Origin: a virus
Taxonomy: Duplodnaviria > Caudoviricetes
IMG/VR virus record: IMGVR_UViG_3300032290_000887
Location: 1-32,878 of that record
Reading direction: 5' to 3' (one strand)
DNA: 32,878 nt
Shown: positions 3,263 through 18,344 of the stretch, piece by piece
How positions within the stretch are numbered: position 1 is the stretch's first letter
Layout: each line of letters opens with the position of its first letter
Translations under genes and position numbers: made by a program
Notes under the pieces: generated by a model
What the model saw: the letters and a program-made list of their open reading frames with translations, nothing else
The model's database searches: none
Told to the model about the DNA's origin: nothing

Positions 3263-5272
3263 TTACTTACTAGTTGCTCTGAATGTACCATCCCAATCTT
3301 TAGGTGCAATCCCAGAACCAACTCTCTCCAACATTGCTTCATAATAATCTGTCATTTCTGGATTAGCTTTCTGACAAGGTTCTATCAAATCACAAGCAGC
3401 TGCCCAATGACCTGAATAGTAATTTTGTAAAAACTCTTTGTGTTGTTTTGTTTCTTTAGAGAGGGTGTATATTTTTACACCTTCTTTTTTGCCTTTCACC
3501 GCAATACAATCCAACTCCATTACATCATACTCATCTTTAACCTGTTCTGCGGTTATTGGTCCTAAAACCATTTTAACGCCATAAGGTTTACTCTGTCCTT
3601 CTAATCTCGAAGCCAGATTGACAGAATCCCCAAGACAAGTATAATCAAAGCGTTGATTGCTACCCATGTTGCCGACAACAACGATGCCAGTATTAATACC
3701 AAGACCCATGCCAAAGGCAGGTATACCTTCCGCAACAACCTCTTTATTAAATTCATCTAAACTCTCCATCATTTCTAATGCGGTTTTAACAGCCATCTTG
3801 GCGTGGTTCTTTTCATCAAGTGGTGCATTCCAGAATGCCATCTGAGCATCACCAATGTACTTGTCTAGTGTTCCGTTGTTCTCAATAATCTTTGCAGTCA
3901 TTGCTGTCATGTAACGATTCATAATCTTGGTTAGACCTTGAACATCAACACCATAGTGTTCTGATATTGCGGTGAAACCACGAACATCGGTAAACATAAT
4001 AGATAACTCTCTACTCTCACCACCTAATTGTAATAACTCTGGATTCTTTTGCAACTTCTCAACCATTGCAGGACTGAGGTATGTGCCAAACTGTTTTTTG
4101 ATTTGTTGTTTCTGTAAAAACTCACTTACAAACTTAACGCCATAAGCGTGAAGGATGACAAGAATAAGAGTAACCACAGGCATTGTGATATCCACGAGGT
4201 AGTTGTATCCATTGAATAGGTAATAAGACCCACCAATGCAACCCAAAATAATAAGTACGGAAGAAAGAAGGCCAGCATAAACATACCTTGTTAAAAATAA
4301 TAGTACTAGACAAAGTACCAATGTGTATAGTAACTCAGCTCCTTCAGCCCAATCTGGACGCTGAATAATTGTTTCACCAACCAATGTATCTAGTACAGCC
4401 GCTTGAAGATAATGTGGATAGATTGCTCCTGAAGCTGTTGCGATAGGATTGTTAAGACCTTTTGCTGTGAGTCCAACGATGACAATTCCGCCGTTAAATT
4501 CTTTTGGTAGATTTGATACTGAGTGCTCAATTGGCTTGGAACTCCAATCAACCCAAATTCTACCAACTTGGTCTGTTGTGATTTTTCCAAATTTAGGTAT
4601 TCTGACCGCTTCGATTCCGTATTCGGTGATTTTAATTTGGAAACTTGGGTCATCTGATGCCACTCGGAGCGTTTCAAGACTGATGCTTGGATATAGCAAG
4701 CCTCCAGACTGTACAACCATTGGCACTCTTCTGGTGACGCCATCAATTTCTGGTAAGGTGTTAACAATACCAATACCAGCAGCATTTTCGTTAAAAGGTT
4801 TAATGTTTGGTTGTATACTTTCATAATTAATTCCTGAATTGCCTTCTCCAATTACTGAGACACCTGGTCTAAATGGAGGAAAAGGGTTGATTAGTTTTTC
4901 ATTACTTGCTGTCTGTGGTAAAACAACAGGAAACTTTTTAAGTGTCTCCGTTAATTTATCATCTTGACCAAAACGGTCAGGCTCAGGCATATAGACGTTA
5001 AAGACAACCAGCCCAGCACCACGAGAATACAAATCAGTAACCAATTTGGCATACTCGCCTCTTGGGAACGGGAACTGGCCTTTGCTTCGAATAGTTTCGT
5101 CATCAATGTTTATAACGTGTACCAATTTTGATACAGAGGTTTCCTTTGAGGTTATTAGTTGGTCGAAGTATCTTAAACGGACACTTTCAACAAAATTCCC
5201 ATCGTTAACACGAACAACCAAACATAATAGTAATGTGATGAGTGCTGTCCATGGATTGAGTAGTTTTTTCAT
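3263..5272 (-). CDS. CHASE2-domain class III adenylate cyclase
   Basis: N-terminal TM, CHASE2 motifs (INIDDETI..GQFPFPR, EIDGVTRRVP), several TM helices, cyclase motifs FTDVRGFT, DKYIGDAQM, GINTG, DYTCLGDSVNLASRLEG; Lys/Thr specificity residues point to ATP. Confidence 0.95.
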   Translation of the reverse strand: MKKLLNPWTALITLLLCLVVRVNDGNFVESVRLRYFDQLITSKETSVSKLVHVINIDDETIRSKGQFPFPRGEYAKLVTDLYSRGAGLVVFNVYMPEPDRFGQDDKLTETLKKFPVVLPQTASNEKLINPFPPFRPGVSVIGEGNSGINYESIQPNIKPFNENAAGIGIVNTLPEIDGVTRRVPMVVQSGGLLYPSISLETLRVASDDPSFQIKITEYGIEAVRIPKFGKITTDQVGRIWVDWSSKPIEHSVSNLPKEFNGGIVIVGLTAKGLNNPIATASGAIYPHYLQAAVLDTLVGETIIQRPDWAEGAELLYTLVLCLVLLFLTRYVYAGLLSSVLIILGCIGGSYYLFNGYNYLVDITMPVVTLILVILHAYGVKFVSEFLQKQQIKKQFGTYLSPAMVEKLQKNPELLQLGGESRELSIMFTDVRGFTAISEHYGVDVQGLTKIMNRYMTAMTAKIIENNGTLDKYIGDAQMAFWNAPLDEKNHAKMAVKTALEMMESLDEFNKEVVAEGIPAFGMGLGINTGIVVVGNMGSNQRFDYTCLGDSVNLASRLEGQSKPYGVKMVLGPITAEQVKDEYDVMELDCIAVKGKKEGVKIYTLSKETKQHKEFLQNYYSGHWAAACDLIEPCQKANPEMTDYYEAMLERVGSGIAPKDWDGTFRATSK

Positions 5273-8190: not shown

Positions 8191-8265
8191 TGGTACTCCC
8201 GATTGGATTCGAACCAACGACCAAGAAATTATGAGTTTCCTGCTCTACCTTTGAGCTACAGGAGT
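8191..8265 (-). tRNA. tRNA-Met or Ile2 (CAT)
   Basis: Cloverleaf, loop CT-CAT-AA, TTCGAAT, encoded CCA. Confidence 0.9.
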
Positions 8266-8270
8266 ATAAC

Positions 8271-8355
8271 TGGTGCGAGTGGAGGGACTTGAACCCTCAT
8301 TCCTTTCGGAGACAAATTTTAAGTCTGTTGCATATACCAATTTCGCCACACTCGC
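8271..8355 (-). tRNA. tRNA-Leu (TAA)
   Basis: Cloverleaf with long variable arm, CCA. Confidence 0.92.
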
Positions 8356-8360
8356 ATTAC

Positions 8361-8435
8361 TGGTACCCCCAGCAGGAATCGAACCCACATTAAGGGAGTA
8401 GAAATCCCTTGCATTATCCATTATACTATGGGGGC
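8361..8435 (-). tRNA. tRNA-Arg (TCT)
   Basis: AGGGA-TTTCTAC-TCCCT anticodon arm, CCA. Confidence 0.92.
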
Positions 8436-8447
8436 ATTAATTTATTT

Positions 8448-8532
8448 TGGTGCCTCGGGTCGGACTCGAACCGACACGGATTTCTCCACTGGCTTCTAAG
8501 ACCAGCGCATCTACCAATTACACCACCAAGGC
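8448..8532 (-). tRNA. tRNA-Leu (TAG)
   Basis: Long variable arm, CT-TAG-AA loop, CCA. Confidence 0.92.
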
Positions 8533-8533
8533 T

Positions 8534-8764
8534 TTACCTACGCATCTTCCAAGTGTATTCTTCACCACTTGGGAGTTTTCCATCTTCTACTGAATCAACA
8601 CCCATCTTACCAACTTGATTTGGATTCTCACCAACCATGGTAACATAAGCACGACCAATATTACGCAAATGATTGGCTTGTGTTAACGCTTCAACCATTT
8701 CAATATAATCTTCACTACACGCTTGACCGTTAGGACAAGTCCAATACACTTTATACATAATCAC
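8534..8764 (-). CDS. Hypothetical protein within the tRNA array
   Basis: ORF fills the gap between tRNA-Phe and tRNA-Leu. Confidence 0.7.
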   Translation of the reverse strand: MIMYKVYWTCPNGQACSEDYIEMVEALTQANHLRNIGRAYVTMVGENPNQVGKMGVDSVEDGKLPSGEEYTWKMRR

Positions 8765-8777
8765 CTTATATAAAACT

Positions 8778-8853
8778 TGGTGCTGCCCACAGGAATCGAA
8801 CCTGTTTCAACGGTTCTTCAAACCGCCGCTATGACCACATCAGCTAGAGCAGC
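8778..8853 (-). tRNA. tRNA-Phe (GAA)
   Basis: Cloverleaf, TT-GAA-GA loop, CCA. Confidence 0.9.
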
Positions 8854-8859
8854 ATAACT

Positions 8860-8934
8860 TGGTACATCGTGTAGGGATTGAACCTACGACCTACGCCTTG
8901 TAAGGGCGCCGCACTACCGCTGTGCTAACGATGC
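8860..8934 (-). tRNA. tRNA-Val (TAC)
   Basis: Cloverleaf, CT-TAC-AA loop, CCA. Confidence 0.92.
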
Positions 8935-8946
8935 ATTAATTCACTT

Positions 8947-9020
8947 TGGGGTGACTACTGGGAGTTGAACCCAGACTAGCAGAATCACAAACTGCGTTGC
9001 TACCGTTACAACATAGTCAC
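8947..9020 (-). tRNA. tRNA-His (GTG)
   Basis: Cloverleaf, C73 discriminator, CCA; position -1 is T rather than G. Confidence 0.9.
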
Positions 9021-9075
9021 ACCAAAATGAATTAACATTTTGGACTTGGTGTTGCGTACACCAAATAAAACGATA

Positions 9076-10482
9076 TTAGACCTTGTATCGGTCAGACATA
9101 ATGGCTTTCAACATAATAGCTTCTGGAGTAAACTCTGAAGTATCTGCTGCAAGAATTGCTTTAACGATTGAAGGACTGAACCCTGAAACCAAAGCAACAC
9201 CTGATTCATCATGCTTAACAGGTACGTTATCTGATGAATTGATATTCCAAAAAACAACTTTAGGAACTTCATAACCATTTGAGGTGAATTGACGAGCAAT
9301 CATCTCCATGGCCGAATCATCATGTTCTACACAAGCATTGAATTGCATATCAGACAGAATCAACAGCATTGATGGCATATCTTCCTGTGGTACTTTGCCT
9401 TTTACAGCAACATTTAAAATCTTCATCATGGCTTTCACCAAGTCAGTAGACATACCCCATTCGGATCTAACCATTTGATCCATCTTCTGAATGACATTAC
9501 CTTTTAGGTTAAGCAATTGCGGATCACTTGAGAATGTTAAAAAGGTGTCTTTGAAAACTCCTTTGTTCTTATCTGCAAGGTATAAACCAAGAGATACAGA
9601 AACATCCATACATGATACTGAACTGTTACGACCAGCAGGGCATGACATAGAACCAGAAACGTCAACTAAAGGTAATACATTCGCATCACCAACAAAATTC
9701 TCTAAAGCATCCCATTGGGCTACAATGTGGTCTTTTTCGGTTTTGTTGAATGAACCGTATGCTACGCCTTTCAATACATCATAAGGGAATACTGCACCAG
9801 CATTCACCTTAACTTTTGGATCGGTACCTTTAACCAATTCAGCCACATACTCCGCAAACTTTTCAGTATTACGGTAGAATGCTTTCTTATAGCGGGTTGC
9901 CGCCAAAGAAGGCACATGGCTGAAATTGATGTTATCCCAATCCTTAGCACACATTTGAGATTCTACCACTTTAGTCATTTCAACCAAAGACTTACGATAG
10001 AACTTAGGTGTCATGCCGAAGAACTCACGGATTTCACGAGCAACTTCACCTTTGCGGGGTGTCCATTTTGCCGCCAATCCGTTTTTAGCTCTCAGAGCAT
10101 CACCAAGCAAAGTATATGCTTGTGACTTCAATTCAGAAGTCTGGAAAACAAATAGGTCATCCCAACGACCAACTTCAGGTACTTTCCCAAGCAGCTTCAT
10201 TGCCAAATCAGGACGATTGTTTTCCAAATACTTCAGAATCTGGCGAAACAACTCACGTTCGCCAGCGCCACCACGAACATCACGAGACCATAAGGCAACT
10301 CGCAATGCTAATTCTTCATCCTGCACCAAAGCAGAAACGAAGTCAGCTGTGATATCTTTACCACGGCTGGCACCGATTTTATAGAACAAATCAACTACAG
10401 CATTAGCTGTTGATTTGCGAGCTTTCATACCATTGTCGGTACGAGCTTCTTGATTTTGAACTGCGTTTACAAATGAATTCAT
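9076..10482 (-). CDS. Ro60/TROVE-related protein with C-terminal vWA domain (DUF2828-like)
   Basis: RDVRGGAGER, GRWDDL and LAAKWTPR motifs; MIDAS DVSGSMS; ILSDMQF; VVFWN; LVSGFSP. Confidence 0.85.
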   Translation of the reverse strand: MNSFVNAVQNQEARTDNGMKARKSTANAVVDLFYKIGASRGKDITADFVSALVQDEELALRVALWSRDVRGGAGERELFRQILKYLENNRPDLAMKLLGKVPEVGRWDDLFVFQTSELKSQAYTLLGDALRAKNGLAAKWTPRKGEVAREIREFFGMTPKFYRKSLVEMTKVVESQMCAKDWDNINFSHVPSLAATRYKKAFYRNTEKFAEYVAELVKGTDPKVKVNAGAVFPYDVLKGVAYGSFNKTEKDHIVAQWDALENFVGDANVLPLVDVSGSMSCPAGRNSSVSCMDVSVSLGLYLADKNKGVFKDTFLTFSSDPQLLNLKGNVIQKMDQMVRSEWGMSTDLVKAMMKILNVAVKGKVPQEDMPSMLLILSDMQFNACVEHDDSAMEMIARQFTSNGYEVPKVVFWNINSSDNVPVKHDESGVALVSGFSPSIVKAILAADTSEFTPEAIMLKAIMSDRYKV

Positions 10483-10503
10483 AATATTACTTCCTCAATT
10501 TAA

Positions 10504-10554
10504 CAGGTTAACTTTTTCAAGTTGGCTTTGAATTTTATTGCTGAACTTAACCTA
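10504..10554 (-). ncRNA. CAGCAA hairpin RNA, copy A (directly 5' of the Ro60-like gene)
   Basis: AGGTTAA/TTAACCT stem enclosing GTTCAGCAA...AAAAAG. Confidence 0.6.
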
Positions 10555-10561
10555 AAAACAA

Positions 10562-10657
10562 CAGGATGGTTTCTACTTTTTGATTAGAGTGAGAAAATCG
10601 AAACTCACTATCCGATGGCGATTTTACCCGCCGAGTAGTTTTGCTGCAGCCATCCTA
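10562..10657 (-). ncRNA. CAGCAA hairpin RNA, copy B
   Basis: AGGATGG/CCATCCT stem enclosing CTGCAGCAA, internal hairpins, AAAAAG. Confidence 0.65.
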
Positions 10658-10662
10658 AACCT

Positions 10663-10736
10663 TGGAGCGAGATATCAGAATCGAACTGATAACAACAGAT
10701 TGGAAATCTATAGTTTTACCATTAAACTAATCTCGC
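10663..10736 (-). tRNA. tRNA-Gly (TCC)
   Basis: Cloverleaf, U73, CCA. Confidence 0.92.
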
Positions 10737-10745
10737 CTACTTAAA

Positions 10746-11222
10746 CTATGCTGCTTTATCTAATACGAATTTTAAACGATCCGCAGCGAAAGATGCGGCA
10801 AACGCTTGAGGTTTTACCAGAGGGATAACATTACACATACCTCTGATGTACCCAACTGCCTCATTGATAACGCATGAGCTACCGTGCATTTCATCGGGAT
10901 TAATATCCAAATGTACCTCAACATCACGGTCTTCCAAAACGTCTTTCAACTTCAAATACAATTCGGCAATTTTGTATACCTCATTCATTAATCGCATTCT
11001 TGGTTTGTCTTTTCTTTGATCCCAATCTCTTTCAGTTTGGACTTCACCAAAGATTTTACAACCATTCTTACCATTAATATGTACTACAATAGCCAATGTG
11101 TAATCAGCATACCAATCTTCACCAATGAGGAAACGAGCAGAGTCCGCACCGATATAAATCTTAGTCTCAGGGCTTTGTGCCTCGATAAACTCTTTCACTT
11201 CATTAATGTCAATCTTACGCAT
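10746..11222 (-). CDS. RNase H-like YkuK (DUF458) family protein
   Basis: IYIGADS, AIVVH, RLMNEV, VEVHLDIN, AASFAADR motifs. Confidence 0.8.
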   Translation of the reverse strand: MRKIDINEVKEFIEAQSPETKIYIGADSARFLIGEDWYADYTLAIVVHINGKNGCKIFGEVQTERDWDQRKDKPRMRLMNEVYKIAELYLKLKDVLEDRDVEVHLDINPDEMHGSSCVINEAVGYIRGMCNVIPLVKPQAFAASFAADRLKFVLDKAA

Positions 11223-11245
11223 GATTACTACTCCTTTAAAAAACT

Positions 11246-11319
11246 TGGAGCGGGTAGAGAGAATCGAACTCTCAAATACACCTTGGCAAGGTGTCAGGTT
11301 ACCTTTACATCATACCCGC
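11246..11319 (-). tRNA. tRNA-Gly (GCC)
   Basis: Cloverleaf, CCA. Confidence 0.92.
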
Positions 11320-11325
11320 ATAACT

Positions 11326-11400
11326 TGGCACCGCCCGAAGGATTCGAACCCTCACCAGCTGATTTGGAGTCAGTTGTGCTGCCGTTGACACTAGAGCGAT
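11326..11400 (-). tRNA. tRNA-Trp (CCA)
   Basis: CT-CCA-AA loop, G73, CCA. Confidence 0.92.
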
Positions 11401-11409
11401 AATAAACAA

Positions 11410-11472
11410 CAGGATAGATTTTAACTTTTCAAATTAGAAGTTTGATGTTTTAAATTTGCTGTTACTATCCTA
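11410..11472 (-). ncRNA. CAGCAA hairpin RNA, copy C
   Basis: AGGATAG/CTATCCT stem (compensatory change) enclosing TAACAGCAA...GAAAAG. Confidence 0.65.
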
Positions 11473-11476
11473 AAAC

Positions 11477-11553
11477 TGGTACAGAGTATTGGGCTTGAAC
11501 CAATGACCTACGCCTTATCAAGACGTTGCTACTACCAACTGAGCTAACTCTGC
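11477..11553 (-). tRNA. tRNA-Ile (GAT)
   Basis: Cloverleaf, CCA. Confidence 0.92.
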
Positions 11554-11562
11554 ATTAATACT

Positions 11563-11637
11563 TGGCAGGTCCTGAGGGAATCAAACCCCCACTTTTTCGT
11601 TCGTAGCGAAATGTAATATTCATTTTACTAAGGACCT
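11563..11637 (-). tRNA. tRNA-Arg (ACG)
   Basis: TTTCG-CTACGAA-CGAAA arm, CCA; slightly atypical D and T loops. Confidence 0.85.
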
Positions 11638-11643
11638 AAAACT

Positions 11644-11720
11644 TGGTGGTGAAAGTAGGATTCGAACCTACGACCGTTACCGTATGAAGGTACTGCTCTA
11701 CCAAACTAAGCTACATCACC
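11644..11720 (-). tRNA. tRNA-Met (CAT)
   Basis: Cloverleaf, TT-CAT-AC loop, CCA. Confidence 0.9.
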
Positions 11721-11724
11721 ATAA

Positions 11725-11799
11725 TGGTGGACCGTGAGAGAATCGAACTCTCAATTTCTGGTTGCAAACCAGATGTGTTCCCATTAGCACTAACAGCCC
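11725..11799 (-). tRNA. tRNA-Ala (TGC)
   Basis: G3:U70 identity pair, CCA. Confidence 0.93.
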
Positions 11800-11804
11800 G
11801 AAAC

Positions 11805-11880
11805 TGGTCTGAGTACAAGGATTCGAACCTTGGACGCCTGGTCCCAAACCAGGTATGTTACCAGACTACACTATACTCAG
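11805..11880 (-). tRNA. tRNA-Pro (TGG)
   Basis: C1-G72, TT-TGG-GA loop, CCA. Confidence 0.93.
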
Positions 11881-11891
11881 ATATAAAACAA

Positions 11892-11947
11892 CAGGATGGA
11901 ATTTTCTTTTTATCAATAAAAGTTTTTTTGTTGCTGTTACCATCCTA
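11892..11947 (-). ncRNA. CAGCAA hairpin RNA, copy D
   Basis: AGGATGG/CCATCCT stem enclosing TAACAGCAA...AAAAAG. Confidence 0.65.
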
Positions 11948-11952
11948 AAACT

Positions 11953-12036
11953 TGGTGCGTCAGGTAGGGATCGAACCTACTTGTCCTAAAACCACGGGGT
12001 TACAGCCCGCTGCCCTGCCATTAGAGCATCCAACGC
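11953..12036 (-). tRNA. tRNA-Tyr (GTA)
   Basis: Long variable arm, CT-GTA-AC loop, CCA. Confidence 0.9.
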
Positions 12037-12044
12037 ATTAAAAC

Positions 12045-12121
12045 TGGCTGCCTCGGGTGGGCTCGAACCACCGACATCCTGATTAACAGTCAGGCGCAAC
12101 TACCAACTGTGCTACAAGGCA
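12045..12121 (-). tRNA. tRNA-Asn (GTT)
   Basis: Cloverleaf, G73, CCA. Confidence 0.93.
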
Positions 12122-12128
12122 ATAAAAC

Positions 12129-12205
12129 TGGTTGCGGAGTGATGGATTCGAACCACCGACCTACAGCTTATGAGGCTGCCGGGATGACCTCTTCCCTAAC
12201 CCGCA
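12129..12205 (-). tRNA. tRNA-Met (CAT), initiator-like
   Basis: TGCGGG...CCGCA-ACCA acceptor resembles tRNA-fMet; one bulged nt in the acceptor stem. Confidence 0.85.
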
Positions 12206-12214
12206 ATTAAAACT

Positions 12215-12331
12215 TGGTGTCGCACTCAGGATTCGAACCTGAACCACTTCCTTTTCGATGGAATTTTGGTATGCTGTTTATATTCTTGTCAGAATACGTT
12301 AATAAGTGTGCTACCATTACACTAATGCGAC
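12215..12331 (-). ncRNA. tRNA-like RNA with the anticodon arm replaced by a ~55-nt insert
   Basis: Acceptor GTCGCAT/GTGCGAC-A-CCA, D arm TAGTGTAATGGTAGCAC, T arm TCAGG-TTCGAAT-CCTGA; 117 nt. Confidence 0.8.
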
Positions 12332-12340
12332 ATTAAAACT

Positions 12341-12414
12341 TGGTGCCCCTACACAGAATCGAACTGCAAACTCCGGATTACAAAACCAGCGTTATACCAT
12401 TTAACTATAAGGGC
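12341..12414 (-). tRNA. tRNA-Thr (TGT)
   Basis: Cloverleaf, CCA. Confidence 0.92.
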
Positions 12415-12420
12415 GAAACT

Positions 12421-12495
12421 TGGCGACTCGTGGGAGAATCGAACTCCCGTAAGAGGATAGACAATCCTCTGTAATGACCATTATACTAACGAGCC
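12421..12495 (-). tRNA. tRNA-Asp (GTC)
   Basis: Cloverleaf, G73, CCA. Confidence 0.93.
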
Positions 12496-12496
12496 A

Positions 12497-12572
12497 TCAT
12501 ATTGAAGTACACTTGTGATTTATGCGCCGAATCGGATCTCTGAGAAAGGAGAACAAATGTACTTCAATATGA
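12497..12572. repeat. ATATTGAA long-stem hairpin, copy 1
   Basis: TCATATTGAAGTACA...TGTACTTCAATATGA inverted repeat filling the Lys-Asp spacer. Confidence 0.75.
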
Positions 12573-12576
12573 CAAC

Positions 12577-12650
12577 TGGTGGGGGCACAGAGAATCGAAC
12601 TCTGATAGACCGGTTAAAAGCCGGATATTCTACCTTTGAATTATACCCCC
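12577..12650 (-). tRNA. tRNA-Lys (TTT)
   Basis: Cloverleaf, CCA. Confidence 0.92.
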
Positions 12651-12708
12651 AAAAGTTTGTCACTCTTGTCACTATCCATGACAATACTCCTATAAAAAAC
12701 AAACAATA

Positions 12709-12783
12709 TGGTACACCGTATGGGTTACGATCCCATCTAGCCACCTTGAAAGGGTGGTGACCTCACCAGAAGTCTAACGGTGC
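12709..12783 (-). tRNA. tRNA-Glu (TTC)
   Basis: CCACC-CTTTCAA-GGTGG arm, CCA; atypical T loop ATCGTAA. Confidence 0.85.
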
Positions 12784-12803: not shown

Positions 12804-12816
12804 TTTTTAAAGAACA
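12804..12816 (-). promoter_or_regulatory. boxA antitermination element
   Basis: TGTTCTTTAAAAA (rrn boxA consensus TGCTCTTTAACAA) between the promoter and tRNA-Glu. Confidence 0.7.
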
Positions 12817-12842
12817 TTTACTGCATTTCTTACTATGTGTCC

Positions 12843-12870
12843 ATTATACATGAACCACTCAATAAGTCAA
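12843..12870 (-). promoter_or_regulatory. sigma70-type promoter internal to the tRNA array; TGTTG-N6-CAACA variant at 12884-12899
   Basis: TTGACT-N16-TATAAT. Confidence 0.85.
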
Positions 12871-12914
12871 CAACTATTTTCATTGTTGCCTAAACAACAC
12901 TAAGACTACCTTAC

Positions 12915-12992
12915 TGGAAGTGCGAGTCAGATTTGAACTGACGATTTTACGGACTTGCAAACCGTTGCTTTTGACCACTCAGCCATCGCACT
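12915..12992 (-). tRNA. tRNA-Cys (GCA)
   Basis: U73, TT-GCA-AG loop, CCA. Confidence 0.9.
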
Positions 12993-13000
12993 ATTAAAAA

Positions 13001-13087
13001 TGGCGGGTAGTATAGGATTCGAACCTATGCACCTTTACGGTGGACGGCTTAGCAAGCCGCTGCCTTCGACCACTCAGCCAACTACCC
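13001..13087 (-). tRNA. tRNA-Ser (GCT)
   Basis: Long variable arm, G73, CCA. Confidence 0.93.
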
Positions 13088-13678
13088 ATTTCCGTTACTA
13101 AAACCTACCTTACCGCCTTGTGCTTCAATTCTCTTAATTACATCTTCAAAAAGAATCGGTGCAAAATCTGTCTGTTCTACGCATACACAATGATAACGTG
13201 GATCAATTTCCGTTTCGCTGTAGATAATTTCTCCAGTCGGATAATTAATACCTTTCGCCTTCATAACACGATTCGTATGGAGGTGTCCATGAATGTTTAC
13301 ACCAAATCTTCCAAGATTTTCTGGATGAAGTGGAATATGGCTAAGAATCATTCCGTTCATTACATGATAAGCACGAAGCTCTCTGAAATGTTCACGATAT
13401 TCATCATCTTTAAAAATATCATGGTTACCACGAATCAGTACTTTGTCACCATTAAGTCTACGCATAATACCAAGGCTTTTGCGTTTCATCACTACATCGC
13501 CAAGATGATATACTTTGTCGTTCTTTCCTACTCTTTCATTCCAGAGTTTGACCATTGCTTCATCCATTTCATCAGGATCAGTCCATGGTCTAATCTTAAC
13601 TCCGGTATCTTGGTGTGTAAAACGACATACACCAGCATGACCGAAATGTGTATCACTTACAAGAAATACAGCCGGCAT
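13082..13678 (-). CDS. Calcineurin-like metallophosphoesterase
   Basis: SDTHFGH, HLGD, GNHD, SHIP and HGHLH motifs. Confidence 0.92.
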   Translation of the reverse strand: MPAVFLVSDTHFGHAGVCRFTHQDTGVKIRPWTDPDEMDEAMVKLWNERVGKNDKVYHLGDVVMKRKSLGIMRRLNGDKVLIRGNHDIFKDDEYREHFRELRAYHVMNGMILSHIPLHPENLGRFGVNIHGHLHTNRVMKAKGINYPTGEIIYSETEIDPRYHCVCVEQTDFAPILFEDVIKRIEAQGGKVGFSNGNG

Positions 13679-13688
13679 AATCTTCTCC

Positions 13689-14156
13689 TTATCTTATTCT
13701 TCCATCAACAACTTTCTGAATTTGATTATGTGGTACACCAGTAATATGAATACCTGGAGACTTTTGACCTCTACCACTTTCATCAAAATAATTTATAAAA
13801 CTTACACCAAATCTTTCAAAGTTAACATTCGTTGTATGATAAGCACCAATCGTAATTACATGATTTGGTTTTCTCATCTTTTTAGAATGTACTTCTTTTA
13901 ATACCTGTCGTATCGTCTCAGCACCTAGACTGAAACCATATAACTCATACGGTTTGTTAATTTCACCAATTAACTTTACTGCCTGTTTATTCTGGTCTGC
14001 ATTGTATATTACCCAACACATATTGTGGTAATATGCATACTCAATAAATATCACTTCATCAAACATTCTATTTGCACCACGAAACCCAAAAATGTAGGTA
14101 TCACAAGCAAACACATTCATTGAAACAAACAACAACAAGAATAATAATTTTTTCAT
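13689..14156 (-). CDS. Secreted alpha/beta-hydrolase-like protein
   Basis: True start MKKLLFLLLF at 14156 (the track extension runs through tRNAs); signal peptide; GFSLG nucleophile elbow. Confidence 0.65.
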   Translation of the reverse strand: MKKLLFLLLFVSMNVFACDTYIFGFRGANRMFDEVIFIEYAYYHNMCWVIYNADQNKQAVKLIGEINKPYELYGFSLGAETIRQVLKEVHSKKMRKPNHVITIGAYHTTNVNFERFGVSFINYFDESGRGQKSPGIHITGVPHNQIQKVVDGRIR

Positions 14157-14169
14157 AACTTTACTTATA

Positions 14170-14262
14170 TGGCGGGCGGCAGAGGAGTCGAACCCCATCC
14201 CCATTACAGAGAACCTGGTTTTCAAGGCCAGTCGCAGGACCATCCCCGCTGCATTACCACCC
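14170..14262 (-). tRNA. tRNA-Ser (TGA) with 8/4 fold
   Basis: CT-TGA-AA loop, long variable arm, G73, CCA; 8-bp acceptor and 4-bp T stem. Confidence 0.85.
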
Positions 14263-14336
14263 ATATTGAAATACACTTCTGATTCTGTTCGGTAAAACAG
14301 AATGTTGGCTAGCCTACCTGAAATGTACTTCAATAT
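14263..14336. repeat. ATATTGAA long-stem hairpin, copy 2
   Basis: ATATTGAAATACA...TGTACTTCAATAT exactly fills the Gln-Ser spacer. Confidence 0.75.
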
Positions 14337-14412
14337 TGGCAGGGGGTACTGGATTCGAACCAGTGCTGTCGATTTCAAAGACCGATACCTTAGGCCACTA
14401 GGTGAACCCCCA
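14337..14412 (-). tRNA. tRNA-Gln (TTG)
   Basis: CT-TTG-AA loop, G73, CCA, U1:U72 mismatch. Confidence 0.9.
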
Positions 14413-14428
14413 ACAAAAACTGCATAAA

Positions 14429-14440
14429 TTTTTAAAGAGC
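14429..14440 (-). promoter_or_regulatory. boxA antitermination element
   Basis: GCTCTTTAAAAA just 3' of the attenuator terminator. Confidence 0.7.
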
Positions 14441-14443
14441 GGT

Positions 14444-14482
14444 AAAACAAAAAACCCTAGAAACTTTCGTTTACTAGGGTTT
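14444..14482 (-). terminator. Intrinsic terminator of the attenuator upstream of the tRNA array
   Basis: AAACCCTAG...CTAGGGTTT stem followed by TTTGTTTT; 5' arm can alternatively pair with GGGTTTGTG at 14518-14526. Confidence 0.85.
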
Positions 14483-14509
14483 GTGATGAATTAGATTTTA
14501 TCTAATATA

Positions 14510-14638
14510 CTACGATACACAAACCCCATTTGATCCAATAAAGCCGCTATTCTCATTTTTTGATGAGCGATAATCGGCCGGCCATGTCGCTAAGGACTGG
14601 CAAGGAGATATTGAGAGTGTATGTATAGTTTTCATCAT
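14510..14638 (-). CDS. Putative attenuator leader peptide (42 aa)
   Basis: MMKTIHTLSISPCQSLATWPADYRSSKNENSGFIGSNGVCVS; starts 6 nt after the -10 box and ends over the antiterminator strand. Confidence 0.65.
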   Translation of the reverse strand: MMKTIHTLSISPCQSLATWPADYRSSKNENSGFIGSNGVCVS

Positions 14639-14644
14639 AGTCCT

Positions 14645-14673
14645 AGTATATATGCTTTTTGTTCTGTAGTCAA
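14645..14673 (-). promoter_or_regulatory. sigma70-type promoter at the head of the tRNA array
   Basis: TTGACT-N17-TATACT. Confidence 0.8.
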
Positions 14674-14704
14674 GCACTTTTTTCACTATTACCTAAAAAT
14701 ATTT

Positions 14705-14992
14705 TCACTTTACTATTGTATTCTTATCTTTAACAACTTCACCATTCGGATGAATATAGGCAACAAAGCCATCTTCATCTTTGAATGCTACTCCTTCCCA
14801 AAAATACTCTTTTTTCTTAAAATGAGCAATCTGTTCTTCGGTAAATTCAGATACATCCATTCGCATTTCACCTAAGTGCTCTTGCCAATTGTCATCGGCT
14901 ACATTAGCGATACGGAATGCTTCATCTTTATTTTCGGCCTCGACCACATGAACCATACGGAAGACACCGATGCTTTCAACAATGTATTTCAT
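14705..14992 (-). CDS. Hypothetical protein
   Basis: AAGGA RBS, operon packing. Confidence 0.75.
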   Translation of the reverse strand: MKYIVESIGVFRMVHVVEAENKDEAFRIANVADDNWQEHLGEMRMDVSEFTEEQIAHFKKKEYFWEGVAFKDEDGFVAYIHPNGEVVKDKNTIVK

Positions 14993-14994
14993 AA

Positions 14995-15222
14995 TTATCC
15001 TTTAACAGAAATTTTCACTCGCATAAACCATGCTAAAACAATAACTGCACACCAAGTACTGAAAGTATAAGGAATCTCCAGAATTGGGAATAACGTATTT
15101 AATGCCCAAACGACAAAAAGCGGGCCTAAAGTAAAAATTGCAACAACCAGCATGATAGCAACTAACCCGCCAGCTGCTAGCATAGCGTTTTCCTTGAGTT
15201 TATCCGACATTTTCATCTCCAA
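14995..15222 (-). CDS. Small membrane protein
   Basis: Two hydrophobic segments; exact start uncertain. Confidence 0.7.
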   Translation of the reverse strand: MEMKMSDKLKENAMLAAGGLVAIMLVVAIFTLGPLFVVWALNTLFPILEIPYTFSTWCAVIVLAWFMRVKISVKG

Positions 15223-15499
15223 TCGAAAATTCTAGCTTGGAAAGTGAGTCCCAGCGAAAACTTCGCCAGCCTTCAGCTTCAACATCGTACACAGGTTGTG
15301 CTTCATCTGAATATTTTCGTGTTCCAGCACTTTCCGTTGACTTTTCAGACTTAGGAATTCGTGCTTCCGACAAAGTAGCGACCATTTCACGCTGCGTTCC
15401 GTCTTTTTTCGTAAAAGTCAGCGTTACAACTTCACTTTTTAACAAATCTCTCAACCAATTTCTTGTTTCAGCATCAGTAAAATCAAATTTTGCACTCAT
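15200..15499 (-). CDS. WYL_2 / Sm-like SH3 beta-barrel protein
   Basis: FTKKDGTQREMVATL and VYDVEAEGWRSFRWD motifs. Confidence 0.75.
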   Translation of the reverse strand: MSAKFDFTDAETRNWLRDLLKSEVVTLTFTKKDGTQREMVATLSEARIPKSEKSTESAGTRKYSDEAQPVYDVEAEGWRSFRWDSLSKLEFSIGDENVG

Positions 15500-15502
15500 T
15501 TT

Positions 15503-15889
15503 TCAATTCTCCGCAATTTCTTTAGCATAATTTTTCAGTTTTAATAGTGTAACACGACTTAGAGTACGTTTGAGGTAATCATCGACCCATTTATAGCTGT
15601 TTTCCGTCTTTCTAACAAAGCATCCATACACATTTGCACGGATCAAGCCGTGAACATATGCCTCTGGATCACTAAAAATCGCCTCAAAGTGGTCATCAAA
15701 TTCTGGTTCACCATTTTCACTCTGTTTAAAGAATATAACATGGTACATATCACCAAATTTTGAGCCACCAACTTTTTCACCTTTATCGAAATCATCCAAA
15801 AAATCAAAATAGGACAATTTCAGAGAACCTTCATCGTTTCCCGGCATCAGGTAAAAACCATCAAATTGGGTCGCATTAGGTTCCGACAT
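15503..15889 (-). CDS. Hypothetical protein
   Basis: Likely start MSEP after AAGGA; the track's longer start overlaps another gene. Confidence 0.7.
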   Translation of the reverse strand: MSEPNATQFDGFYLMPGNDEGSLKLSYFDFLDDFDKGEKVGGSKFGDMYHVIFFKQSENGEPEFDDHFEAIFSDPEAYVHGLIRANVYGCFVRKTENSYKWVDDYLKRTLSRVTLLKLKNYAKEIAEN

Positions 15890-16016
15890 AAACATCCTTT
15901 TGTACGGTACGCTTGCTGCGGTTACGGTCATAGACCTTCTTTGAAACCGCAACCCGCATACGGTACTTGGGTGTTCTCAAATCCTTTGCGATAAGGTTAC
16001 GCTTAGTGCAACTCAT
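15876..16016 (-). CDS. Small basic protein, ArfA-like (46 aa; not in ORF track)
   Basis: AAAGGA RBS; MSCTKRNLIAKDLRTPKYRMRVAVSKKVYDRNRSKRTVQKDVYVGT. Confidence 0.65.
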   Translation of the reverse strand: MSCTKRNLIAKDLRTPKYRMRVAVSKKVYDRNRSKRTVQKDVYVGT

Positions 16017-16171
16017 TTAAATTCCTTTAACGAACCTGCCCTACGGGCACCAAAAAACATTAGTAGAAGGCCAACAGCCGAAATTCCATAAAAAATCAAA
16101 TCAGAACCACCTTCAATACTGGAGGCGACAAACACGATTAAAAATCCCAAAAGAAAAGTAGCTATGCCCAT
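16013..16171 (-). CDS. Small two-TM membrane protein (52 aa; not in ORF track)
   Basis: MGIATFLLGFLIVFVASS...AVGLLLMFFGARR; start and stop overlap both neighbours. Confidence 0.6.
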   Translation of the reverse strand: MGIATFLLGFLIVFVASSIEGGSDLIFYGISAVGLLLMFFGARRAGSLKEFK

Positions 16172-16326
16172 CAGAAATTATCATCCGAAACAACATCAGA
16201 ATAATCCAAAACGTCAAATACCCACTCAACAGGTATGCCTAACTTCCGAGCTATCATCAGAGGAGTATTGTCGGAATCTTCCAACAAAATCTGAATATCG
16301 GTAAAAACATCTTTCATTACAGCCAT
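16171..16326 (-). CDS. Small hypothetical protein, possible HTH
   Basis: Start MAVMKD; TPLMIARKLGIPVEWV. Confidence 0.6.
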   Translation of the reverse strand: MAVMKDVFTDIQILLEDSDNTPLMIARKLGIPVEWVFDVLDYSDVVSDDNF

Positions 16327-16327
16327 T

Positions 16328-16594
16328 TTAAATCCTTGACAAATTAATAACACGACCTGGATAATCGTTGTGAAATACCGCAACAGGGCAATACACGATT
16401 TTACCAAATCGACCTTTATCTTCAGCATCCGACCATGAGTCTTTGGTCACAATGATTTTATAGGCATTGTAGCCTTGCTCGTTGGTGATTTCCAAAATTT
16501 CACCTTCAACGAAACAATCTTCACGACCAACCATAGGTTTAAAATCGTAAGAGCGAATAACATCACGGACTTCAAATTTTTCTGCTTTCAACAT
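16328..16594 (-). CDS. Hypothetical protein
   Basis: GAAAGGA RBS in the promoter leader; start MLKAEKF. Confidence 0.75.
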   Translation of the reverse strand: MLKAEKFEVRDVIRSYDFKPMVGREDCFVEGEILEITNEQGYNAYKIIVTKDSWSDAEDKGRFGKIVYCPVAVFHNDYPGRVINLSRI

Positions 16595-16623
16595 TTTCTT
16601 TCCTTTCTCATTCAACAGGATCC

Positions 16624-16651
16624 ATTATACATGAACTGGCGATGGTGTCAA
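16624..16651 (-). promoter_or_regulatory. Early promoter cassette; box at 16679-16696
   Basis: TTGACA-N16-TATAAT, then GGATCCTGTTGAATGAGAAAGGA leader. Confidence 0.88.
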
Positions 16652-16913
16652 GGGGCTGTGCAAAAATACAACACTTTATGTTGCTAAAAAACAACACTAG
16701 AAATTTAAATATTTACTTGCAATAAGAGCGAGAACCAAAACAAAGCCAAATAATAAAATTGGTGCAATGATAACGCAACCTATTGCAAGTAAAATACTAA
16801 TCATAATATAAAAAATACATAAACTAAAAAGCAATTAATAGCTGCATAAACAGCACCCATTAATAAAATGGTTGCTATGTCATATACGAGTCTAGGCATT
16901 ATTTTTCCTAAAT

Positions 16914-17396
16914 TTAAAACCTGTAAGTGCCGACTCGACCAGCACCGGCAGGCGGTGGTGTATTCCCATAACTAGCCGGGACAATCATGGTATTCTGAAT
17001 CGGTGTAGTGCTAACAGGTGTTGGTTGGTGTATGTATGCAATATTGCCAGGAACGCCGTAGTATTCACTTTGCGGTTGTGGGTAATATCCATTTTGTTGT
17101 GGTGGGGGCGGATAATATCCGGGTGGATATTTTGGTGCATGATAACCGCCTGGAGGATCCACAGGGTCGCAATGAACATTGATTGGAATTAAAACACGGC
17201 CGCCAGAATTGATTTTCTGAGCCACATATTCCACATTCGGTCGCATATTCTCCCTTGTACATTCCCTTGAGGCCTGTACAATTTCTTTCCGATGCATAGC
17301 TTCCGGGCCATCATAGCCAGACAACTTATGGACAGGCGGAGAAGAACAACCTGAAAGGGCGACAACACCAGAGACAACTAACAGTTTAAATTTCAT
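16914..17396 (-). CDS. Lipoprotein with Pro/Tyr/Gln-rich tail
   Basis: MKFKLLVVSGVVALSGC lipobox. Confidence 0.75.
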   Translation of the reverse strand: MKFKLLVVSGVVALSGCSSPPVHKLSGYDGPEAMHRKEIVQASRECTRENMRPNVEYVAQKINSGGRVLIPINVHCDPVDPPGGYHAPKYPPGYYPPPPQQNGYYPQPQSEYYGVPGNIAYIHQPTPVSTTPIQNTMIVPASYGNTPPPAGAGRVGTYRF

Positions 17397-17398
17397 TT

Positions 17399-17695
17399 TC
17401 AACTCCATGTACGGTGACGTTCCGCCACCCATTCGTTACCATCATATTCTTCAATGTACCAATCTACATCATCGGGAATTTCCACGATTTTTAAATCAGC
17501 ACAGGCACCGTTGGCAGCATCTCCTAATTCCTCAACAATCCGAATCAAAGCCGCATCATTACGGGAGATATCACGGTCATAAAAACCAGCATTAGGCCAT
17601 TCAATACCTTTCAATTCCAGGTAACGAGCAATTCCTGATTCCGACAAACTAAAACCACCATAGCAATTATTAATTACAACTTTCACAATATTCAC
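17399..17695 (-). CDS. Hypothetical phage protein
   Basis: N.CYGGFSLS and IVEIPDDVDWYIEEYDG.E pattern. Confidence 0.75.
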   Translation of the reverse strand: MNIVKVVINNCYGGFSLSESGIARYLELKGIEWPNAGFYDRDISRNDAALIRIVEELGDAANGACADLKIVEIPDDVDWYIEEYDGNEWVAERHRTWS

Positions 17696-18007
17696 CTAAA
17701 AAGTATTAAGAGTAGGTTCCAATTCCGCAATCAACTCACGTTCCCGTTGATGAGCGGGTTTTCGACCACGAACAATTTCCAAAACTTCGTACCGATAATC
17801 AGCCTCGATATTGTCACGGAGAAAACAACAGAAAGACCAATCCTTGTCTTCCTTCATGGCACGGCTAACGTGCTTCTGCCAGCGAACCTTAACTGACCGA
17901 ACAAACGCTTGACCCTGTGCAACGGTTAGACCGATGTACGAGTCTCCAGTATTTTCGCAAATAACACGATATAATACATGGTTACGGTCGGATCGTTTTT
18001 TTCTCAT
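17696..18007 (-). CDS. Small GIY-YIG family nuclease
   Basis: VLY...SYIGLT, RWQKH, ERELI...PTLN. Confidence 0.75.
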   Translation of the reverse strand: MRKKRSDRNHVLYRVICENTGDSYIGLTVAQGQAFVRSVKVRWQKHVSRAMKEDKDWSFCCFLRDNIEADYRYEVLEIVRGRKPAHQRERELIAELEPTLNTF

Positions 18008-18034
18008 AAAGATTCCTTTCTCATTACAGGATCC

Positions 18035-18062
18035 ATTATACATGAGCCACTAGTAATGTCAA
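18035..18062 (-). promoter_or_regulatory. Early promoter cassette; box at 18078-18095
   Basis: TTGACA-N16-TATAAT. Confidence 0.88.
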
Positions 18063-18085
18063 GCATTATTTTGAGAGTGTTGTTT

Positions 18086-18310
18086 TTAAGCAACATATAA
18101 TCCAACCAAGTAAATTGCTAATAATACTGAATTAATCAATATTAAGGAATATTCTTTCCATTTAATGGCAACGATTAACCATGATAATGCTCCAATATTA
18201 AAGAATATAATATTATAGGGATCCATTTTAAAACTGGTTAATAAGGCACCGATAATTGTGGTGAAAGTGGCAAACCACTTAATATAAAATATAGCATCTT
18301 TTTTCATCAT
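18086..18310 (-). CDS. Small three-TM membrane protein
   Basis: Hydrophobic ORF directly after a promoter. Confidence 0.7.
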   Translation of the reverse strand: MMKKDAIFYIKWFATFTTIIGALLTSFKMDPYNIIFFNIGALSWLIVAIKWKEYSLILINSVLLAIYLVGLYVA

Positions 18311-18316
18311 GGTTCC

Positions 18317-18344
18317 ATTATACATGAACCATGCCCAAAGTCAA
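18317..18344 (-). promoter_or_regulatory. Early promoter cassette; box at 18361-18378
   Basis: TTGACT-N16-TATAAT. Confidence 0.88.

Follow-up and report, generated by a model that had tools for sequence, protein, structure and literature searches.

A Putative Ribosome-Controlled Attenuator with a Nearly Complete Amino Acid Leader Upstream of Phage tRNA Arrays

Introduction

The trp, thr and ilv leader attenuators, which share the logic of the his attenuator, carry runs of one to three amino acids and target biosynthetic enzymes. Codon swaps can redirect the his leader to Ser sensing (PMC4046918). The closest known system to the element considered here is the uORF attenuator of whiB7/wblC in Actinobacteria. 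The M. smegmatis whiB7 uORF contains every amino acid but Cys, and changing its single Trp to Ala removes much of the Trp response, a precedent that one codon can suffice (PMC10274678).

On the side of the regulated genes, the tRNA-rich region of T5-like phages supplies tRNAs that stand in for host tRNAs cleaved by retron PtuAB, PrrC or PARIS, and their expression level matters. This rescue is ascribed to a strong promoter; the main text contains neither "attenuat" nor "leader," and a sensing element is absent from its description of the counter-defence (PMC11555353). Why phages carry near-complete tRNA sets, and whether these are regulated, is a long-standing question.

The window, i.e., the whole stretch of 32,878 nucleotides analyzed here, is a 14%-complete viral record (IMGVR_UViG_3300032290_000887). 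Its phage affinities are visible only as indirect matches to Melnitz, HTVC008M, BUCT-ZZ01, and S13. A CHASE2 and adenylate/guanylate cyclase gene (3263–5272) is 37% identical to those of Methylophilales phage Melnitz and Pelagibacter phage HTVC008M.

Organization of the Leader Locus

An initial annotation, made from the sequence alone, proposed that an attenuator with an all-20-amino-acid leader peptide precedes the tRNA array. The following elements were located:

14645–14673, minus strand: sigma70-type promoter, TTGACT-N17-TATACT (promoter scan)
14510–14638, minus strand: leader ORF of 42 codons for all 20 amino acids; codons 2–34 predicted as sensing window
14612–14626 (approximate limits), minus strand: 5' segment, possible anti-antiterminator, predicted to pair with the antiterminator in untranslated RNA (MFE folds)
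14517–14528, minus strand: antiterminator strand, GGGGTTTGTG region, codons 37–41 (folds and family covariation)
14475–14485, minus strand: switch segment, either antiterminator partner or terminator 5' arm (folds and cognate pairing)
14444–14482, minus strand: intrinsic terminator, bulged hairpin and U tract (fold)
14430–14440, minus strand: boxA-like sequence (family search anchor)

The physical features named in the initial annotation were recovered. The promoter (14673–14645) is followed 6 nt downstream by the ATG, so the leader transcript is likely leaderless; in the family, the start lies 5–9 nt after the −10 box in 64 of 104 distinct leaders and 25–60 nt after it in 16. The ORF at 14638–14510 uses 33 distinct codons among its 42, eight of the 42 being for Ser, and encodes 20 of 20 amino acids; the complementary nine-base segments GGGTTTGTG (14518–14526) and CACAAACCC (14477–14485) are both as described. 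The hairpin and U tract at 14482–14444 fold with −15.5 kcal/mol over 14440–14490, and the lower GGG/CCC and the U tract are invariant or nearly so across 20 aligned relatives. A simple terminator scanner did not list the hairpin at 14444–14482, probably because it is bulged. Past the terminator lie the boxA-like sequence, which we take to be boxA from the rrn boxA consensus, and tRNA-Gln, at 14412.

Considered alone, the window ORF is only mildly unusual. All 20 amino acids occur in 32 of 3964 stretches of 42 residues from the window's own genes (0.8%) and in 2.1% of stop-free nucleotide shuffles, so that the case rests on its relatives. None of the eight listed RNA runs contained more than 0.20 of the words. 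Four of these runs represent assembled contigs of 90–99%-like relatives, which span the promoter too and have no bearing on termination, strand, or level.

A Family of Leaders Linked to tRNA Genes

Relatives were collected with an antiterminator-motif scan (40 viral loci) and two terminator-plus-boxA scans blind to the ORF and the antiterminator (66 and 91 viral loci), the terminator G run and U tract being part of the search pattern. The leader was defined as the longest ORF of 20–50 codons that starts with ATG and stops 35–75 nt before the terminator G run; a GTG ORF with such a stop took precedence when longer by 8 codons or more. A tRNA lies within 260 nt in 64 of the 83 distinct upstream sequences and is lacking at this distance in 19. 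The check proposed earlier, for a conserved open frame upstream of related tRNA arrays, gave a positive answer: the frame is kept in 59 of the 64 tRNA-linked sequences, and in 73 of 74 in metagenomes.

Breadth follows tRNA linkage. All 20 amino acids are present in 41 of the 64 tRNA-linked sequences and 19 in another 14, while four have fewer and five have no ORF; the 19 sequences without a nearby tRNA include one all-20 leader, located at a contig end. In the ORF-blind terminator-plus-boxA subset, all-20 leaders account for 34 of 54 tRNA-linked sequences vs. 1 of 18 without a nearby tRNA. The 57 distinct peptides of the pooled searches have a median pairwise identity of 31% and form 27 clusters at 60% identity. 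Sixteen of these clusters are all-20, where windows of matched length from 465 phage proteins predict 0.19 and shuffled nucleotides 0.33; at least 19 amino acids are present in 23 (1.5 expected). The clusters share ancestry, merging at 40% identity. The other two frames encode all 20 amino acids in 0 of 54 cases and are interrupted by stops in 49 of 54.

A metagenome scan, which overlaps the viral set, yielded 115 loci, of which six were dropped for too little upstream DNA; 90 are distinct. Fifty-one of its 74 tRNA-linked sequences have all 20 amino acids and nine have 19, and the 22 peptides less than 60% identical to any earlier one include ten with 20 and three with 19. On this comparative evidence, the leader ORF is a member of a conserved, fast-evolving family of about 100 sequences, which nearly always contain 19–20 amino acids.

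Among cultured phages, the sole blastn match of the window leader is tRNA-Gln; the L138 leader in blastn and the peptide in tblastn gave chance matches. Protein-profile searches revealed nothing beyond further family members named "hypothetical," and the leader peptide has no match in Pfam or PHROG. At the gathering threshold, Rfam detects only tRNAs in the window, every match in 14415–14700 being below the cut-off. In the tRNA regions of the cultured phages DLP_6, BUCT-ZZ01, S13, and RHph_I1_18 (six loci, parts of four genomes), no ORF with at least 19 types plus terminator was found before the array, a weak negative since the scan took the longest version of each ORF and failed to detect even the leader of the window (58 codons when read from an upstream GTG).

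Bacterial genomes contain 13 pattern matches, only one of which has a tRNA array downstream. It belongs to the cultured gammaproteobacterium Pleionea sp. CnH1-48 (L218, 1930–3064), where three tandem ORFs of 38–47 codons with 18–19 types, each followed by a terminator, precede a 15-tRNA array. Another locus of this strain (L221, 3847–3001) has two similar leaders with 19 and 17 types, flanked by genes that presumably represent rtcB/rtcA and an extra EF-Tu, as named from motifs. The Pleionea leaders are possible cellular counterparts of the phage leaders in a testable host. In the viral set, L020 (1534–1620, minus strand) has a 28-codon, 18-type leader with the same antiterminator/terminator motif upstream of a tmRNA, labeled as permuted by ARAGORN, and three tRNAs. 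TAAATA motifs near the leader starts of L070, L095, L099, L102, and L108 resemble T4 late promoters, and the leader may also be transcribed late in infection.

Selection on Leader Composition

Thirty-six leaders, chosen among those with at least 19 types, were aligned. No column is invariant. Shuffling within columns leaves on average 1.3 all-20 rows (maximum 7), vs. 28 observed. Between close pairs, single-copy residues changed less often, in 106 of 569 cases vs. 531 of 2036 (odds ratio 0.58 within amino acid type), and in 86 of the 106 changes the amino acid type survives elsewhere in the leader. For example, the sole Arg of the window leader lies in DYR; L048 has DYL at this place and gains an Arg in TPR. 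Leader pN/pS is 0.61, and the leaders differ in the frame in which their antiterminator is translated (GVCV, GFV, or WGLC) without loss of any of the 20 types. Random drift from the window ORF keeps all 20 amino acids in 3–6% of runs at 50% identity. These comparisons indicate that the full amino acid set is maintained by turnover rather than at fixed positions, and that breadth itself is selected.

Codon diversity above shuffled controls, another expectation of the initial annotation, holds for the family, with 30.8 distinct codons per leader vs. 28.4 under synonymous resampling (n = 24), and fails for the window ORF alone, whose 33 distinct codons are not unusual vs. stop-free shuffles (14%). 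In the same 24 leaders, coverage exceeds resampling for Ile-ATA (18 vs. 10.0), Arg-CGN (23 vs. 18.0), Ser-AGY (23 vs. 18.6), and Gly-GGR (23 vs. 14.7), the last excess being inflated because the antiterminator is G-rich; Arg-AGR and Gly-GGY show no excess. The codon-coverage excess hints at sampling at the level of tRNAs.

Structure and Predicted Behavior of the RNA Switch

The leader stop codon lies 49–59 nt before the terminator G run in all 57 peptides, the allowed range being 35–75 nt, and a terminator hairpin is present in all 27 cluster representatives. The expectation that terminator and antiterminator covary was borne out in two ways. Duplexes of the antiterminator with its cognate arm have −17.5 kcal/mol vs. 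−14.2 kcal/mol for non-cognate ones (0 of 20,000 permutations), and the cognate advantage persists when the variable terminator stem is excluded (p = 5e-5, n = 24). In a plain alignment of 20 chosen relatives, 80.9% of cells pair and 12 changed on both sides (0 of 500 shuffles), part of the antiterminator variation being a one-base register shift.

In nascent-RNA folds, with an assumed ribosome footprint of −15/+15, the antiterminator forms in 22–24 of 24 leaders when the A site is at least 10 codons from the stop, and in none of 24 when it is 2–6 codons away; for the window, the model places the switch boundary at codon 34. Single-copy residues make up 0.29–0.36 of positions 9–24 codons from the stop vs. 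0.05–0.13 in the last eight; they thus accumulate at positions where ribosome stalling is predicted to release the antiterminator.

The window's own folds are less clear-cut. At equilibrium with the U tract included, the terminator wins at nearly all stall positions; with the U tract omitted and one ribosome, it wins at codons 12–34. Even in nascent RNA, a single ribosome at codons 18–28 gives an antiterminator probability of only 0.2–0.5. The dominance of the terminator at equilibrium means that the read-through model depends on co-transcriptional folding order or on queued ribosomes. In untranslated RNA of the family, the terminator exceeds 0.5 in 18 of 24 full-length folds and the antiterminator exceeds 0.5 in 22 of 24 nascent ones.

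Amino Acids Likely to Be Sensed

The amino acids available for sensing were counted in codons 2 to −9 of the 32 cluster representatives whose leaders have 19 or more types. This stretch contains C, N, P, Q, R, S, and T in all 32. Upstream of the tail, Cys (32 of 32, 11.6 expected), His (30, 16.2 expected), and Trp (28, 11.6 expected) are over-represented, internal Met (20 of 32, 17.7 expected) is not enriched, and Val (17 of 32, 27.5 expected), Gly (23, 26.9 expected), and Asp (24, 27.4 expected) fall below expectation. Val and Gly often come from the antiterminator sequence itself. After removal of the last eight codons, only five of 32 leaders retain all 20 types. Sensing of all 20 amino acids is thus an overstatement, Val and often Gly and Asp being present only in the masked tail. 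With Val and partly Gly and Asp often outside the sensing window, about 18–19 amino acids would be sensed.

Leaders of restricted composition offer another view of the sensed set. In those with at most 17 types, 0.55 of residues are cognate to the leader's own array vs. 0.28 for other arrays (n = 10, p = 5e-5). One of 11 leaders was dropped from this test for its single tRNA type, L166 was added despite a distance of 1,030 nt to its first tRNA, and contig ends truncate several arrays. For example, L137 has a leader rich in S, R, Q, I, and D ahead of a D, I, Q, R, S, V array, and L166 has one rich in T, A, N, K, and I ahead of an A, I, K, N, T, V array; L019, L123, L273, L237, and L264 also match their own partial arrays. 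The 19-type leaders L160, L156, L194, and L197 do not extend this pattern, as the missing residue does not match the tRNA missing from the array. Leaders of partial arrays, as compared here, mirror their own tRNA subsets, inexactly.

tRNA Array and Internal Promoters

ARAGORN at default settings detects 25 tRNAs in the window; a relaxed run adds a Ser(tga)-like gene at about 14170–14262, giving 26 tRNAs for all 20 amino acids. The array is organized as follows:

12915–14412, minus strand: first segment with tRNA-Gln, Ser(tga)-like, two ORFs including a metallophosphoesterase, Ser(gct), and Cys
12805–12870, minus strand: internal promoter TTGACT-N16-TATAAT (12870–12843) and boxA-like sequence (12815–12805) (promoter scan)
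8191–12783, minus strand: remaining array of 22 tRNA genes, interleaved with DUF2828/DUF7788 RNA-binding protein and RNase H-like genes

The internal promoter and its boxA, unmentioned in the initial annotation, sit after four of the 26 tRNAs. Both tRNA-Ser genes are in the first segment, as noted before; Gln, Ser, Ser, and Cys precede this promoter. It would transcribe the other 22 tRNAs with the attenuator bypassed. The earlier statement that the attenuator gates the array is thus tenable for the four proximal tRNAs and too strong for the majority with their own promoter, where the switch likely acts as a booster and not as the sole gate.

Among the 21 family arrays uncut by contig ends, an internal promoter with boxA is present in seven, and a strict scan finds none in the other 14. 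In 7 of 57 leaders, a second promoter lies directly after the terminator, before the first tRNA. At least 19 amino acids are covered by 17 of the 21 arrays, and in four, three or more amino acids are missing behind all-20 leaders. Some phages likely have the switch as their sole gate; in others, and for the greater part of the window array, it is likely a booster.

Several other features of the arrays were observed. The internal promoter is frequently placed after Gln-Ser-Ser-(Ile)-Cys. In close relatives (L006, L011, L016, L030, L043–L046; runs X1, X2, X4), the terminator is joined straight to the internal promoter by a 1570-base skip relative to window positions 12880–14449, indicating that the promoter position relative to the first tRNAs is mobile. 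Hairpin-like spacer repeats, small structured elements bounded by ATATTGAAGTACATTT ... AAGTGTATTTCAATAT, occur between tRNAs at 14277–14333 and 12502–12572 in the window and also in L047, L049, and L050, where the leader is missing at the position adjoining the shared upstream gene. Four near-consensus promoters within 12844–18344 (18344, 18062, 16651, 12870) have 16-nt spacers vs. 17 nt at the leader promoter and possibly form a distinct phage promoter class. The array-borne proteins at 9076–10482 (DUF2828/DUF7788, phrog_850), 10746–11222 (RNase H-like), and 13082–13678 (metallophosphoesterase) are possibly an RNA repair/processing module co-transcribed with the tRNAs.

Proposed Mechanism and Alternative Explanations

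As the comparison shows, conservation and selection extend to the ORF, its breadth, the position of its stop, and antiterminator pairing. The element is probably a ribosome-controlled transcription attenuator, whose leader samples nearly the whole amino acid set so that slow decoding raises phage tRNA transcription. Translation, stalling, read-through, and feedback we infer, as follows. A ribosome would load on the likely leaderless transcript. On reaching the last eight or so codons it would cover GGGGUUUGUG, and the terminator would form. If it stalled about nine or more codons before the stop because no usable charged tRNA was at hand, the antiterminator would capture the terminator 5' arm first, and the antiterminated RNA polymerase would continue through boxA into the tRNA genes. 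The new tRNAs would relieve the stall, closing a negative feedback loop. In the window phage, the tRNAs for Gln, Ser, Ser, and Cys would have the switch as their only proximal source, and the other 22 would be boosted by it.

Uncharged tRNA, cleaved tRNA, or competition in the course of infection may act as the signal. Extra tRNA would help chiefly when tRNA is limiting, and this, together with the mirrored composition of the restricted leaders, favors tRNA supply over amino acid supply as the variable monitored. A more specific version, which we put forward tentatively and regard as open to considerable doubt, is that the leader audits the tRNA pool of the cell with one codon for nearly all tRNAs that the phage could supply, detects the destruction of any host tRNA by anticodon-nuclease immunity, and switches on replacements as needed, the partial-array and Pleionea leaders belonging to the same class of tRNA-homeostasis attenuators.

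A weighted sensor, responding mainly to Ser/Cys shortage and controlling the first segment (Gln, Ser, Ser, Cys) with a weak secondary response to other residues, would explain why Ser makes up 11.7% of leader residues vs. 6.1% in phage proteins and Cys 4.6% vs. 1.5%, with 4.0 Ser copies in the sensing part. The Ser fraction is also higher when Ser tRNAs head the array (0.127 vs. 0.092 otherwise, n = 15 vs. 9, p = 0.037), and the internal promoter often follows Gln-Ser-Ser-(Ile)-Cys. We consider this reading unlikely, as it leaves unexplained why single His, Trp, Tyr, Glu, and Gln codons are kept through compensation, and as no internal promoter was detected in 14 of the 21 uncut arrays; Ser/Cys weighting is compatible with a broad sensor, as a layer on top of it. 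Selected breadth also speaks against a nonspecific gauge of how fast translation runs or how it is coupled to transcription (ribosome damage, antibiotics, stage of infection), in which breadth would be incidental. Any stall in codons 2–34 is predicted to act alike, and the toiL uORF is able to respond to many ribosome stresses (PMC12121999). Such a gauge is improbable, because it could do without a selected amino acid set, whereas the leaders maintain their breadth and, in front of partial arrays, reflect the tRNAs of their own array.

The remaining alternatives deny the switch itself. If the peptide acted in trans, the terminator would merely end a small gene and the tRNAs would be transcribed from downstream promoters, which do exist; the pN/pS below 1 (0.61) and a semi-conserved W..YR motif would fit such a peptide. 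This is very improbable given the lack of an invariant column among 36 aligned leaders, the three reading frames of the antiterminator nucleotides, the covariation of the antiterminator, and the absence of Pfam or PHROG matches. A chance ORF in a structured non-coding leader might be entertained for the window alone, where the chance of all 20 amino acids is 1–2%; it is hardly credible for the family (16 of 27 clusters vs. 0.19 expected; other frames 0 of 54, with stops in 49 of 54), whose statistics refute it unless the clusters are mis-defined.

If the leader is selected for the whole decoding set, this would show that tRNA arrays are deployed against unpredictable shortage of any tRNA or amino acid, and a broad leader would add a sensing step to the known phage tRNA counter-defence. 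The element of about 250 nt has a sigma70-type promoter, which makes a codon-by-codon reporter in E. coli feasible without phage culture. More generally, it might be used to report starvation or toxins that attack tRNAs.

Comparison with Known Systems

Full-text literature searches, which covered few subscription papers, brought up no leader peptide that controls phage or cellular tRNA genes by attenuation. Within this scope, the arrangement is undescribed, as remarked earlier, with respect to its target; for the near-complete amino acid leader, whiB7 is a precedent (PMC10274678). As judged from sequence, the leader is a real, selected element and probably one of ribosome-mediated attenuation, with a target and design undescribed in the literature covered.

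With the his attenuator (PMC4046918), the leader shares the predicted logic, in which finishing leads to termination and stalling to antitermination. The trp/his-type geometry recognized in the initial annotation applies to the open frame, stop position, covariation, and predicted switch geometry, and does not extend to tandem control codons or target genes. The window leader has 20 types, mostly in one to three copies, and the genes downstream are tRNA genes and phage ORFs rather than amino acid biosynthesis genes. In contrast to the his and trp leaders, the phage leaders contain about 19 residues, mostly single-copy, without amino acid runs, and the Rfam His_leader model gives the window leader 16.4 bits vs. 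a gathering cut-off of 49. The toiL uORF of E. coli topAI is likewise a single uORF with stalls at many positions; it differs by translational repression and Rho termination, antibiotic sensing, and control of a toxin-antitoxin operon (PMC12121999).

Membership in the whiB7/wblC group is not indicated, as a tRNA array is located downstream instead, leader Ala is 4.5% vs. a 6.0% background, and no Rfam, Pfam, or PHROG match points to homology. The whiB7/wblC uORF is cellular, targets a transcription factor, and varies in breadth by species, with conserved Ala enrichment (PMC10274678). The phage leader differs in being phage-borne, in having breadth as a conserved trait, and in having tRNA genes as its output.
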